The notes under the pieces were generated by a model, which made no database searches, was not told the DNA's origin, and saw nothing but the letters and a program-made list of their open reading frames with translations. Below, piece after piece: positions 8,448 through 13,281 of a DNA stretch of 13,281 nt; position 1 is the stretch's first letter; every line of letters starts with the position of its first letter. The stretch comes from a virus (Duplodnaviria > Heunggongvirae > Uroviricota > Caudoviricetes). The DNA lies in IMG/VR virus record IMGVR_UViG_2690316028_000002, positions 1 through 13,281 of that record; one strand, given 5' to 3'. A program made the translations under genes and the position numbers.

Positions 8448-8650
8448 ACGTAAAACCCTGCTGGCCCCCGGCGTCGTGATGTGGTGCCAACCTGAGATTC
8501 AAGGTCAGCAATATATTTTTTGAGATCGCTGACTGAAGTGGCTGTAAATTCCACTCTTCGACCGTCTTTCTGTACCGTCGCCACGCGCTTTCCCATCATC
8601 AGGTCATGTAACGCAGCGCGCGCGGCATCCAGTTCAGTCTGTGTTGCCAT
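8444..8650 (-). CDS. W: Head-tail joining / head completion protein (lambda gpW-like)
   Basis: 68-aa ORF, the same length as lambda gpW; ...[41 protein letters not shown]...[10 protein letters not shown] matches. Start overlaps the A stop. Confidence 0.94.
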
Positions 8651-10572
8651 TATTCATCTCCAGATAATGCCCGCGCGTAATCCGCCAGGGTCTTGTTATT
8701 GTTACGGCTGCCTTCTTCCTCCAGCAGGCTGGCCAGAAGTGAATCAAGATTTAGCTGCCAGCGGGATATGCTTATACGCAGCGCCGCCAGTGCATAAACA
8801 AAGCAATCGAGCGCCTCATTTCGTCGTTTTTTGCTGTCCCAGACGATCTTTTTCTTTCCGTCTACCCATTTTTCCACCTGCTCTTCAGCTGTTAGTTGTT
8901 GGGCCTCTGTTAGATCGTAGATTTCTGGGTTATTCGGGAAATGAACCGCTCCCGCCAGCGGCTCGTCTCTTTGCGCCACCAGCGTGAAACGGTTATAAAT
9001 CTGCTCTTTTGCGGTGTCTGTTCCTACCTCTGTGAGGTAAACACCATTCTTGTTACGCTTGCGTGGCATGTTCGCCACTGGCTTTCCATAAACCGACGCC
9101 CCCTTTATAGGGATCACACGAAACAGACCGTGTTTTTTTGAGCGGTTGTAGACGATGGTGGGATCAATGCCGCCAATATCCCAGCAAGTGCGGGATATAA
9201 CCATTTCGAGACCGTTCTGGCGCTTATACGTCCTGTTGATCGCTTCATCAACTCGAGCGAGAGTCGACTCATCATCATGACGACCCATAATGATAATTTT
9301 GTCGATAAGCCAGCTTTCCTCTCCCGGCCCCCATCCCCAAACACGCATTTCGTAACGGTCAAGCTGGGAGTCAATACCCGCTGTCAGATATGCCACTCGC
9401 TCCGGCACAGACGCTTCAAAGTGCTCTTTTCGTTCCGCTAAAACTTCAGCATCGGGTCGTTCACCTATTTTCGGTTCCCACGTTTCGCCCAGGGTCGTGT
9501 TAACGAAAGTTTTTCGCTTACCCGTATCACCTTTTGTTTTTATCCAGTCCTTGACGATCTGCACCCAGGTTGTGAACGGGCTATATGCGGTCCAGATGTG
9601 GAATGTAACGCTGTCAGGAGGTTCAATTTCGGTACCGGATGAAGAAAACCAGTTAAGGCCGTCTCGTGTCCAGATACCTGTTTCATCACAAATATACCTG
9701 GCCTCCAGAAATTCCAGCTCCTGTTGTTTAATCACACAGGCATTGTGTTCACAGAGGTAGTAAACGCTGGCAGGTTCTCCCGGAGACCATTTGAAGCCAA
9801 ATGGTGTCTCTTTATCACCGAATTTCAGATACTGCTCTTCCCCACAGTGTGGGCATGGAACATGGAACCGAAGAAAATGTTCAGACTCCTTAGCAGCTCT
9901 TTCTATCTGGCACGTACCTTTGACTTTCGGTGTAGATCCGCGAATGGATTTCGGCCATACAGAACCCTCAATACGCTTATCACCCAGAAAGGTGGGAGAA
10001 CCTTCTTTCTCGATGTCATCATCGAAAGCGGCGAGCTCGTCGTAGCCAGCCACATCAACTGATTTTTCACGGTAGTTTTTTGCAGCCTTACCGCCCAGGC
10101 ACCAGAAACCACGACCATTCGAGAAACGCTTCATGCTCAGCGTATTGTCCCGGTGTTTTTTACCGTACCAGGGAGCAAGCGCCAGCAACGTCGGAATATC
10201 ACGAATGGTCGGTTCTACATGAGACTTCATGAAGTTTTCAGCATCACCGTCGGTTGGTAACCATATTAGGGAGTTACGCTGTTTATGTTGGATGAAATAT
10301 GCGTAAACGCCGAGCAACATTTTTGAGTAGCCGACACGAGCCGATTTAACGACATTCACCTCGCGAATATAGTCATTACCCATCGCATTCATAATTGCAC
10401 GCTGAAATGGCAGTGTTTCCCAGCGCCCTTCCTGGTAGGCAGACTCTTTCGGGAGATAATAATTCTCATCTGCCCATTCAACTGCTGTTTGCGGTTGCGG
10501 CCGGTACAGCGAACGTAACCCCGCCCGCGCAGAGTGCTGCAGCCCCTTAACCTGACTGTTCGATATATTCAC
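8650..10572 (-). CDS. A: Terminase large subunit (lambda gpA-like; ATPase/translocase plus cos endonuclease)
   Basis: 640-aa ORF starting MNISNSQV... with high similarity to lambda gpA throughout. The start codon is GTG at 10572..10570, immediately after an in-frame TGA, so no ATG is available. 26-nt overlap with the Nu1 3' end. Confidence 0.97.
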
Positions 10573-11092
10573 TCAGCAACCCCGGTATCATTTCATCCAG
10601 CGCAGCTGCCTTGTTCATGGCCTTAATGATGTCCTTCTTGAGGAAATCAATATGTCGGTTCTCCAGCTCCGGGAAGCGCCGCTGAACCGACAGAGGTATT
10701 CCATCGAGAATGCTGGCGATTTCTCCGGCTACCCGCGACAGCACGAACGTGCAGAATGCGGTCTCCACCACTTCAGCGGACTCTTTTGCATTTTTTAATT
10801 CCTGAGCGTCAGCCTGAGCTCGCGTAAGTCGGTGTCGCTCATATTCAATCGTGCCAGGTTGAAGATCGGACTCAGAAGCGATACGGAGATCTTCAACTTC
10901 CTTCCGCAACTTTTCATTTTCTATAGCTGCATCGCGCGCACTGTACCATTCGATTGCAGCAGCAGATTCAAAGAGAACCTCATTACCTTTGCCACCACCG
11001 CGGACAACCGGCATACCTTGCTCCTGCCAGTTCTGAATCGTTCGGACGCTTACCCCGAAAATTTCGGATAAGCGTTTTTTGTTAACCTCCAT
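10547..11092 (-). CDS. Nu1: Terminase small subunit (lambda gpNu1-like; cosB-binding winged-helix N-terminus)
   Basis: 181-aa ORF, the same length as lambda Nu1; MEVNKK...IRTIQNWQEQGMPV.RGGGKGNEV... matches closely. ATG at 11092..11090 is preceded by AGGAG. Confidence 0.96.
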   Translation of the reverse strand: MEVNKKRLSEIFGVSVRTIQNWQEQGMPVVRGGGKGNEVLFESAAAIEWYSARDAAIENEKLRKEVEDLRIASESDLQPGTIEYERHRLTRAQADAQELKNAKESAEVVETAFCTFVLSRVAGEIASILDGIPLSVQRRFPELENRHIDFLKKDIIKAMNKAAALDEMIPGLLSEYIEQSG

Positions 11093-11099
11093 GGCTTAC

Positions 11100-11260
11100 T
11101 CCTGGCAAAAAACAGAGAAAGGAAACAATCAACGGTAAACTTCCGTTTTCCTTGCTCAGCATTTCCTTTCTGGAGAGAGGACGTTTTTAACAAAAACAAT
11201 GAGTAAACAAGAAGAAGAACGGAAATGGCATAAACCAGAAAATTTTCATAAATAGCGAGA
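11100..11260 (-). promoter_or_regulatory. cosB-like terminase-binding region with R-element-like motifs
   Basis: GGAAAC/GTTTCC-type motifs lie at about 11110..11127, 11153..11169 and 11211..11228, separated by an AT-rich segment. The layout parallels lambda R1, R2, (IHF site), R3 as recalled. Boundaries are approximate. Confidence 0.6.
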
Positions 11261-11261
11261 A

Positions 11262-11285
11262 TCTGCGCGGACGCCGCCCCGTAAC
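11262..11285 (-). other. cosN-like nicking site; predicted 12-nt cohesive end 5'-GGGCGGCGTCCG-3' at 11279..11268
   Basis: The minus strand reads TTACG-GGGCGGCGTCCG-CGCAGA; the lambda junction as I recall it is TTACG-GGGCGGCGACCT-CGCGGG. Nick positions are assigned only by analogy. Confidence 0.6.
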
Positions 11286-11302
11286 AAGGCGGATCGCCGG
11301 AA

Positions 11303-11309
11303 AGGACCC
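11303..11309 (-). promoter_or_regulatory. cosQ-like element (minus-strand GGGTCCT)
   Basis: The heptamer sits inside a stretch (CCGGAAAGGACCCG) that matches the lambda right end as recalled, at similar spacing from cosN. Confidence 0.55.
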
Positions 11310-11337
11310 GCAAACGATAATAATTATCAATTGCATA

Positions 11338-12066
11338 CTATCGACGGCACTGCTGCCAGATAACACCACCGGGGAAACATTCCATCATGATGGCCGTGCG
11401 GACATAGGAAGCCAGTTCATCCATCGCTTTCTTGTCTGCTGCCATTTGCTTTGTGACATCCAGCGCCGCACATTCAGCAGCGTTTTTCAGCGCGTTTTCG
11501 ATCAACGTTTCAATGTTGGTATCAACACCAGGTTTAACTTTGAACTTATCGGCACTGACGGTTACCTTGTTCTGCGCTGGCTCATCACGCTGGATACCAA
11601 GGCTGATGTTGTAGATATTGGTCACCGGCTGAGGTGTTTCGATTGCCGCTGCGTGGATAGCACCATTTGCGATAGCGGCGTCCTTGATGAATGACACTCC
11701 ATTGCGAATAAGTTCGAAGGAGACGGTGTCACGAATGCGCTGGTCCAGCTCGTCGATTGCCTTTTGTGCAGCAGAGGTATCAATCTCAACGCCAAGCGTC
11801 ATCGAAGCGCAATATTGCTGCTCACCAAAACGCGTATTGACCAGGTGTTCAACGGCAAATTTCTGCCCTTCTGATGTCAGAAAGGTAAAGTGATTTTCTT
11901 TCTGGTATTCAGTTGCTGTGTGTCTGGTTTCAGCAAAACCAAGCTCGCGCAATTCGGCTGTGCCAGATTTGGCTGGCAGATCACCAGACAGCAACGCGCC
12001 ACGGAAAAACAGCGCATACAGAACATCCGTCGCCGCGCCGGACAACGTGATAATTTTATGACCCAT
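11338..12066 (-). CDS. Hypothetical protein, 242 aa, function unknown; cargo gene in late-operon orientation abutting cosQ
   Basis: ATG at 12066..12064 is preceded by AAGGAAA about 8 nt upstream. TAG stop at 11338..11340 lies 29 bp from cosQ. No motif I can recognise (no Walker A, no obvious catalytic signature). Similarity to the lambda right end stops at this gene. Confidence 0.75.
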   Translation of the reverse strand: MGHKIITLSGAATDVLYALFFRGALLSGDLPAKSGTAELRELGFAETRHTATEYQKENHFTFLTSEGQKFAVEHLVNTRFGEQQYCASMTLGVEIDTSAAQKAIDELDQRIRDTVSFELIRNGVSFIKDAAIANGAIHAAAIETPQPVTNIYNISLGIQRDEPAQNKVTVSADKFKVKPGVDTNIETLIENALKNAAECAALDVTKQMAADKKAMDELASYVRTAIMMECFPGGVIWQQCRR

Positions 12067-12085
12067 GATTTATTTCCTTTTAGAC

Positions 12086-12139
12086 GTGAGCCTGTCGCAC
12101 AGCAAAGCCGCCGAAAGTTAACGGTTTGCCCAGGCTCAC
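12086..12139. repeat. Perfect 9-bp inverted repeat (gtgagcctg ... caggctcac) with a 36-bp spacer, in the 5' leader of the 242-aa gene
   Basis: Arms at 12086..12094 and 12131..12139 are exact reverse complements. The spacer contains a GTTAAC palindrome. The repeat lies about 20 nt upstream of the 242-aa gene start codon. Confidence 0.8.
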
Positions 12140-12438
12140 AACTGAAAGACTTTCTACGGTGTGCGCGTGCGATGCGCGTAGAAGACTGATTTATCAACCT
12201 GTCTTTATATCAGGATTCATTACCTGACTATTTGTGGGTAAAGTTCGTAGTGCGCTGATCGTGCAAAATGATTTTAGTTGGGAACAGTTCGCAACTCTGT
12301 CCCATAAAAATCAGCATATTCCCATCTATCCCATATCCAGCGCATTGACCATCGGGATACTGAAGGGAGATTCCATCATCTCTTAGAAAGATCACCATCT
12401 CTTTTGTTTCAATTTGCATATAGCTACCTGGAGGATTT

Positions 12439-13053
12439 ATGAATACAAGGATTTTCATGGACTATTACCATGAGATTGATTTTCCATCTTTATTCGCGAG
12501 AGCAGTGGAAAGCGATGACGATGTGGGTACTACATTGCGCATTCACCTACTTTGTGAGCGCATGGTCGAAGCATGGATATGCGCATGCTGTGACTGCCAA
12601 GATCTCTTTGGAAGAGATAAAAACAAACTTTTAATCGAATGTAATACTAAAATATCCATGGCGGGAAACCTGGGAATCCCCACGGAACTTATGAAATCAC
12701 TTAAAACCATCAACTCAATGCGTAATGACCTTGCACACAATCCATCAATACAAAGCATTGCTGATTCAAGGATCCAGAGCCTGACGGATACTCTGACTGA
12801 ATACTTTAAACAGCATCCAACGGAACCCAGCATGGAAGAATCAAAACTGGGTATTTTTAACGCCGAGAATCAATTAACCGAAGAAGTTTCCTTAGATAGT
12901 GACAGTTCAAAAAACAGACTTAAGTTAATCTTGCTGTTCAGCAAGTTAATGCAGGCGTTAATGCAATTAGTTGCAGCTAATCATAATGGGCGCTGGGATA
13001 ACCAATTTAGCCAATTCGTTTACCATGTGACCATGAACGCAACAAAGAGATAA
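12439..13053 (+). CDS. Putative HEPN-domain protein (R-x4-H motif), 204 aa; AT-rich moron, candidate abortive-infection or exclusion RNase
   Basis: ATG at 12439 with GGAGG 4 nt upstream; TAA stop followed 5 nt later by a perfect hairpin. Orientation is opposite to the late operon and the gene is visibly AT-rich compared with the structural genes. The protein has ...SMRNDLAHN... (R95-x4-H100) and a Cys cluster (C48, C50, C51, C53). HEPN assignment rests on the motif only. Confidence 0.8.
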   Translation: MNTRIFMDYYHEIDFPSLFARAVESDDDVGTTLRIHLLCERMVEAWICACCDCQDLFGRDKNKLLIECNTKISMAGNLGIPTELMKSLKTINSMRNDLAHNPSIQSIADSRIQSLTDTLTEYFKQHPTEPSMEESKLGIFNAENQLTEEVSLDSDSSKNRLKLILLFSKLMQALMQLVAANHNGRWDNQFSQFVYHVTMNATKR

Positions 13054-13058
13054 ATCTA

Positions 13059-13077
13059 AGCCCGTTTTGTACGGGCT
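13059..13077. terminator. Hairpin between convergent genes (agcccgt-tttgt-acgggct), putative bidirectional terminator
   Basis: Perfect 7-bp stem with a 5-nt loop, 5 nt after the stop of the 204-aa gene and about 10 nt after the stop of the small minus-strand ORF. Flanks are moderately T-rich, more so on the minus strand. Confidence 0.5.
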
Positions 13078-13086
13078 GTTGCATTA

Positions 13087-13218
13087 TCACAGGCACTCAG
13101 TGAATGCCTGCTGTAATGCCGCGATCAGCCAATCAACAATTCTGGCTGCGTCACCTGGCGGAATGGTGAATGCCGGAAGTCTGTGCCATTTGGCTTTTGC
13201 CATCTGTTGCTCCGTCAT
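13087..13218 (-). CDS. Small hypothetical ORF (43 aa, or 38 aa from the second ATG), speculative
   Basis: Hand-translated: MTEQQMAKAKWHRLPAFTIPPGDAARIVDWLIAALQQAFTECL. Bounded upstream by an in-frame stop at 13234..13236. Weak Shine-Dalgarno. Convergent with the 204-aa gene and ends at the shared hairpin. Too short for the ORF track. Confidence 0.25.
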   Translation of the reverse strand: MTEQQMAKAKWHRLPAFTIPPGDAARIVDWLIAALQQAFTECL

Positions 13219-13281
13219 TATCCGTTGCAGGGGTTATTTTTGATTTATCCGCTCAGGGGGATATCCATTATCAAGCCCACC

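Follow-up and report, generated by a model that had tools for sequence, protein, structure and literature searches.

Sequence kinship between the phi80 prophage defense protein TaiEcA and the HEPN nuclease HepS

What is an AT-rich gene that runs against all of its neighbors doing in the late region of a lambdoid prophage, and does its product, in which the earlier note had seen the R-x4-H signature of HEPN RNases and a candidate for phage defense, belong to a system that has already been described? The window (the whole stretch of viral DNA analyzed here, 13,281 nucleotides) is a lambda/phi80-type late region on the minus strand with lambda-type packaging and head genes (Nu1, A, W, B, C, D, E etc.), and the gene in question lies on the plus strand between the lysis side and Nu1/cos, where all neighboring late genes are on the minus strand (Table 1). 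Its description as an AT-rich moron of opposite orientation with its own Shine-Dalgarno sequence is accurate, i.e., the ORF is intact and is transcribed opposite to the minus-strand late genes, GC content is 0.39-0.42 over positions 12201-13000 against 0.50-0.58 in the head genes, and a GGAGG at 12430-12434 precedes the ATG by 4 nt.

Table 1 Features of the tai/ati region and of related loci (positions refer to the window unless a locus is named)
Feature	Position	Strand	Description
taiEcA allele	12439..13053	+	204 aa, 23.4 kDa, Tai defense protein, HEPN fold, motif R95-N96-x3-H100
atiEcA	12228..12419	-	63-aa anti-Tai counter-defense protein, late-operon strand
Spacer between start codons	12420..12438	.	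19 bp; back-to-back ribosome-binding sites, GGAGG on the plus strand (tai) and AGGT on the minus strand (ati)
Hairpin AGCCCGT-TTTGT-ACGGGCT	13059..13077	.	perfect 7-bp stem, 5-nt loop, 5 nt after the tai stop
Short conserved stretch	13081-13120		40 bp, contains hairpin CAGGCA-N9-TGCCTG
Antisense ORF	11890-12189	+	99 aa, within the gp59-like gene, annotated as phi80 gp50
N15 gp59-like protein	11338-12066	-	242 aa, two genes from tai
Nu1	10547-11092	minus
Terminase A	8650-10572	minus
Second Ati-like domain protein	L009 4266-4610; L010 2-295	-	Ati-like domain
J of the MS 115-1 prophage	L050 4545-8489		1314 aa

The gene is already known: it is taiEcA, a published defense gene of phage phi80, and the earlier note's remark that it could not be assigned to a named family is thereby superseded. 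The chromosome of E. coli MS 115-1 matches the window at 99.9% identity and phage phi80 matches it at 99.6% DNA identity as far as position 13157; the element is a mosaic phi80-like prophage of that strain. The encoded protein is 99% identical (two amino-acid differences) to phi80 gp52, labeled 'hypothetical protein' in the phi80 record (44365-44979), and it is these coordinates that He et al. [quoted passage not shown] With a 3xFLAG tag the window protein has a calculated mass of 26.09 kDa, the published value being 26.1 kDa, and the sole other phage match by tblastn (FSL SP-016, 36278-36748) is the published TaiSalA. In phi80, gp52 separates rha and the lysis genes from gp51 ('putative Fur-regulated protein'), an N15 gp59-like gene and cos, and the window gene likewise occupies the mobile-element hotspot before terS, is transcribed against the late operon and adjoins a gene on the late-operon strand that corresponds to phi80 gp51. 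We identify this neighbor as the cognate anti-Tai gene atiEcA (also called orf64 by He et al., PMC11364771) because their Table S5 gives identities with 76 as the denominator, which is the number of residues in gp51. Homologues 47% identical to Tai are paired with an Ati homologue of 35-37% identity, much as in the published TaiYerA/AtiYerA pair (47% and 35-40%). That the locus is the two-gene Tai/Ati cassette of phi80, residing in a phi80-like prophage of E. coli MS 115-1, is a reading we hold with high confidence.

The nucleotide match to phi80 breaks off at 13157, within the 3' end of rha. J of the MS 115-1 prophage shares 57% identity with phi80 J as a whole; its central-fiber segment is identical, and its receptor-binding end is different and longer. 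Positions 12200-13157 were matched in 116 of 5426 complete E. coli genomes. Both ati and tai also occur at 99.6% identity in the phi80dlac remnant of DH5alpha, DH10B, TOP10, JM83, XL10-Gold, HST04 and NEB 5-alpha/10-beta.

According to He et al. (PMC11364771), TaiEcA is made constitutively in the phi80 lysogen and blocks the incoming lambdoid phages HK106, HK544 and HK578 late in infection, when phage DNA replicates and capsids form, and tails are absent; escape substitutions lie in the central tail fiber J, in its C-terminal part. Protection acts at the population level, infected Tai cells still lyse and release capsids, and the authors understood this as a direct, non-abortive block of tail assembly by a family without homology to known systems (PMC11364771). 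The suspicion of a prophage defense gene is thus borne out by the published function of a 99%-identical allele, which was established experimentally, deletion and complementation included (PMC11364771), and this leaves hardly any credence for a lysogenic-conversion or virulence moron outside phage defense. A regulator of the MtlR/YggD type, the other form of that reading, fares no better: neither profile search of solved-structure sequences gave such a match, and HepS and Csm6 were found instead.

The gene is also not solitary, as the earlier note had it. Although the neighbors indeed carry no MNT domain, a conserved divergent 63-aa gene, ati, starts 19 bp upstream, and with an HMM of the small protein an Ati homologue was located divergently, 19-21 bp upstream of a Tai-type gene, in 38 of the 40 loci fetched. 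The cassettes sit either between lysis and terminase genes or between tail-tube and tape-measure genes, with ati always on the strand of the surrounding late genes. He et al. (PMC11364771) found that phi80's own J is a Tai target, on account of which the phage carries atiEcA in its Q-dependent late operon, that deletion of ati cripples phi80, with delta-ati survivors carrying insertions in tai, and that the partners of one Tai-Ati pair interacted when examined by two-hybrid assay; in their 'noncontiguous operon', Q-driven late transcription reads ati and lowers Tai. A HEPN protein adjoining a small conserved partner that binds it, and whose deletion selects for tai inactivation, might suggest a classical type II toxin-antitoxin pair, in which the antitoxin is continuously needed for cell survival. 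However, tai and ati are divergent and not co-transcribed, Ati, encoded on the late-operon strand, should appear in the lytic cycle only whereas Tai is constitutive in healthy lysogens, two close homologues (L004 and L032) keep an intact tai beside a degraded remnant of ati, and distant family members (P0031, P0123) have no adjacent ati. Neither is there an MNT-type partner or a HepT or Abi_2 Pfam match for TaiEcA, and we consider a toxin-antitoxin system of this kind very improbable.

The Tai/Ati pair is under constraint on both sides, with dN/dS values of 0.05-0.19 for tai and 0.12-0.57 (mostly 0.2-0.3) for ati, both indicating purifying selection. Ati homologues share the motif M-x-I-F-L-R-D-D-G-x-S-L-Q, and the AF2 model of Ati has four beta strands (pLDDT 84); a fold search with this model gave no significant match to a known fold, nor did a search of the BFVD viral fold library give any. 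The phi80 record has Ati as 76 aa, starting at 12458 on the minus strand and overlapping the first 20 nt of tai, and RefSeq has it as 63 aa. Comparative data favor the ATG at 12419, giving 63 aa, as the conserved start, and the 13-codon extension is probably an annotation artefact, since the upstream ATG of the longer form is absent, replaced by ATA or blocked by a stop in most homologues; the sequence of the extension is constrained by the Tai N-terminus on the opposite strand. Between the window and one other locus (L005), Ati is 89% identical and Tai 62%, for which reason we regard the two proteins as having partly separate histories, i.e., the cassette is mosaic, which sits uneasily with a strict one-to-one co-evolution.

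In the cassettes located between tail genes, ati has as its neighbor a gene for a 114-aa protein in which an Ati-like domain recurs in weaker form (E about 1e-7), which suggests a duplication of the counter-defense.

Which protein family, then, does TaiEcA belong to? Conventional searches gave little: TaiEcA had no match in Pfam or NCBIfam, neither PF07751 nor HepT among them, only weak CARF_HEPN matches in PADLOC (weak matches to HEPN models also occur in Pfam), membership of a PHROGs family of unknown function with an 'abortive infection' match at E 0.022, nothing meaningful in a single-sequence search of the PDB, and only 19 clusters, all enterobacterial, in a word-indexed protein search. 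An exhaustive profile search was far richer, with 211 clusters at E < 1e-3, almost all of them standalone proteins of 170-215 aa; R-[NDHST]-x3-H is present in 160 of the 168 proteins retrieved, the remaining eight being mostly short fragments. In an alignment of 137 diverse members (16-73% identical to TaiEcA), invariance is confined to R95, N96 and H100, with H36, E40 and K71 nearly invariant, and the R and H of the HEPN-type motif that had been read from the single sequence (SMRNDLAHN, R95 to H100) are therefore kept in 137 of 137. The fold search likewise agreed with expectation and found a HEPN fold, its matches being a series of HEPN toxins, the sacsin HEPN domain and Csm6. These sequence and fold comparisons support the assignment of TaiEcA as a HEPN protein.

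The closest characterized relative is HepS (STM14_3211), a solo HEPN abortive-infection anticodon nuclease of the Salmonella prophage Gifsy-1 (Sargen et al., Nature 2026, PMC13043305; PDB 9oij, 9oik). The profile of the close Tai clade finds HepS among PDB sequences at E 7e-4, and the 137-sequence family profile does so at E = 7.7e-19 over HepS residues 22-190, nearly its full length; in the reverse direction, the HepS fragment (residues 22-190, rebuilt from the printed HMMER alignment) finds family representatives with a best E of 2e-16, while the direct pairwise match of TaiEcA and HepS is short (30 aa, E 6e-6). Because the searches match both ways, TaiEcA-like proteins and HepS are, as judged by sequence profiles, one family. 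The HEPN fold, the R-x4-6-H motif, the significant sequence relation and the format of a standalone protein below 250 aa all place TaiEcA with HepS, and only the designation 'Solo', for a protein with no partner, does not extend to it, as Ati accompanies the TaiEcA clade. Two further scans returned little: one of genome contigs with alignment A1 gave two loci only, and one with P0023 gave nothing. The Tai paper (PMC11364771) never mentions HEPN, the HepS paper (PMC13043305) never mentions Tai, and the link is absent from the literature searched; it is the new point here, the element itself being known.

HepS is constitutively made and has no partner; its resting form is an inactive tetramer, which opens when a 32-residue segment of the J central straight fiber, around lambda F924, binds to it directly (PMC13043305). 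Its N101, the counterpart of TaiEcA N96, contacts the anticodon in the authors' docked HepS-tRNA model, and Gifsy phages avoid HepS with I instead of F at the F924 position (PMC13043305). In phi80 and the MS 115-1 prophage, J has an identical central-fiber segment in which F is kept at that position, and this fits the need for Ati rather than for a silent J variant. As for how Ati might work, a mimicry of the lambda J trigger peptide (GNIQIFMG vs GNQIFMN) was considered and dropped, the hhalign comparison not being significant (probability 0.4%, E 0.15).

In the light of the Tai-HepS homology and the invariant R-N-x3-H, we predict for Tai proteins a HEPN-type RNase activity that is set off by a tail fiber or tail needle protein. 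The published model says otherwise, i.e., that Tai is a pure stoichiometric binder which sequesters or misfolds the central tail fiber, the HEPN scaffold serving as nothing but a platform and no RNA being cleaved. We think this unlikely, while granting it appreciably more weight than the toxin-antitoxin reading: R, N and H of the motif are the sole invariant columns in 137 sequences, which is hard to explain for a binding scaffold, and defense by the homologue HepS needs H105, even though its authors also infer a block of tail-tip folding (PMC13043305). A J-triggered RNase activity of Tai, as predicted from its unification with HepS, we put at even odds or somewhat better.

Other parts of the protein may speak of specificity. 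Among 20 close homologues R95, N96, A99 and H100 are invariant, and the full set of invariant columns in this clade is R34, H36, E40, R41, E44, W46, C48, C68, K71, N92, R95, N96, A99 and H100. The cysteine cluster singled out by the earlier note (C48-x-C50-C51-x-C53) does exist in TaiEcA, but in the close clade C48 alone is invariant while C51 and C53 are variable, and the wider family conserves none of the cysteines; we therefore rejected it as a metal site. Residues 121-156, 169-180 and 193-204 are variable and are candidates for trigger specificity, which fits the published finding that different Tai versions select different J mutations.

How the two genes are expressed is less evident from the DNA. 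The spacer of 19-21 bp and its CCTCC/GGAGG-type sequence are kept across 13 diverse cassettes and, as it holds back-to-back ribosome-binding sites, each promoter must lie inside or beyond the other gene. A sigma-70 promoter scan upstream of tai, and for ati, returned no strong, convincing or conserved site, so that an autonomous tai promoter is not evident by sequence; the autonomous expression that had been proposed nevertheless agrees with constitutive production in the lysogen (PMC11364771). The hairpin described after the tai stop is real and perfect, and the 51-nt stretch that holds it folds at -15.5 kcal/mol (z = -3.0), but the plus strand has no proper U-tract (GTTGCATT), and for want of this T run the terminator scan made no call; the T-richer tail is on the minus strand. 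The hairpin may be a bidirectional terminator between tai and the converging late genes (rha in phi80).

Beyond it lies the 40-bp stretch listed in Table 1, which recurs at 97.5-100% identity in unrelated Klebsiella, Pectobacterium (ZF40) and Elizabethkingia (EKP1) phages and in E. coli phage mEp390. In every annotated case it is directly 3' of the stop codon of a different minus-strand gene, e.g., rha in phi80, an N15 gp56-like gene in mEp390 and a Mom-like gene in ZF40. The Rfam scan of 11000-13281 was empty and thus gave no match for this stretch, for which a portable terminator or a sequence marking module boundaries are possible readings.

On the other side of ati, the N15 gp59-like protein has a marginal Pfam match to Phage_Tail_Tip, the J central-fiber domain (residues 119-151, 23.3 bits against a cut-off of 22), and the matched segment contains SFIKDAAI, a sequence similar to the core of the HepS trigger (IFMNDVFL, lambda J 923-930). 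The tai gene of FSL SP-016 (TaiSalA) is also adjoined by a gp59-like, COG4733-annotated gene, with AFIKNAFI. We considered this neighbor as a J-derived trigger or decoy and set the idea aside, the Pfam match being marginal, BLAST showing no similarity between the gp59-like protein and lambda J, and published deletions of other genes in the region (neighboring orfs) having no phenotype (He et al., PMC11364771). The 99-aa ORF antisense to this gene has no Pfam or PHROG match and no RefSeq call, and is probably not a gene.

Taken together, we postulate the following course of events. TaiEcA would be a HEPN protein of the HepS family, probably resting as an inactive oligomer. Nascent tail-fiber protein would bind Tai and would probably be sequestered by it, and the same binding would probably open the paired R-x4-H sites for cleavage of tRNA anticodon loops; the candidates for choosing the trigger are segments 121-156 and the C-terminal tail of Tai. 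Ati, a small beta protein, would be made only when late transcription crosses the cassette, antisense to tai, and would probably hold Tai in its inactive state. The most far-reaching form of this proposal has Tai and HepS as one HEPN nuclease family activated by tail fiber or needle, the tailless phenotype as arising at least partly from trigger-dependent tRNA cleavage, and Ati as the first protein dedicated to inhibiting this family, perhaps as a beta-strand pseudo-trigger that fills the sensor site while the active site stays closed; for this we would put the chances at about even.

The locus itself brings little that is new, since this gene pair was characterized genetically, and in the same phage, in 2024. 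The useful result is the link, i.e., that the Tai paper, with its non-abortive and purely steric mechanism, and the HepS paper deal with one family that has an invariant catalytic motif, and it raises a sharp question: does TaiEcA cut tRNA on meeting J? With Ati, moreover, a naturally occurring protein inhibitor of a HepS-like enzyme would be at hand. In practical terms, common cloning strains that carry tai and ati in phi80dlac may restrict Tai-sensitive lambdoid phages or alter their plating.

Compared with TaiEcA/AtiEcA of phi80, the window has the same gene pair, the same synteny and the same divergent arrangement interrupting a Q-dependent late operon, while the host prophage is mosaic, with similarity ending at 13157 and a different receptor-binding end of J; the defense phenotype is that of the phi80 allele, from which the MS 115-1 allele differs by two residues. 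The well-known HEPN systems are more remote. In contrast to HEPN-MNT (HepT) modules, type II systems of an MNT antitoxin and a HepT-like domain, and to Csm6/Csx1, TaiEcA has neither an MNT or CARF partner or domain nor a Pfam HepT-like match, the neighboring genes are without an MNT domain, and Ati, unlike an MNT partner, is a beta protein without a known fold match. The Abi_2 family (AbiD/AbiF, Pfam PF07751) has no match in TaiEcA and matches 7 of its 137 relatives weakly. Tha, a HEPN RNase of Staphylococcus prophages (Rostol et al. 2024), resembles Tai, in those parts of the published accounts drawn on here, as a prophage HEPN effector with a tail-component trigger whose defense and self-protection are combined in a noncontiguous operon; as far as the same accounts go, and in a comparison by description only, the HepS authors set it apart as an entirely different system with another tail trigger and a non-specific RNase. 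The nearest comparison is with HepS itself, to which TaiEcA is about 14% identical in a structural alignment. Cleavage of tRNA and the tetramer are experimental findings on HepS and, by homology, predictions for TaiEcA; lambda triggers HepS yet is not restricted by the Tai versions tested, and therefore, within what appears to be a single family, the triggers differ.
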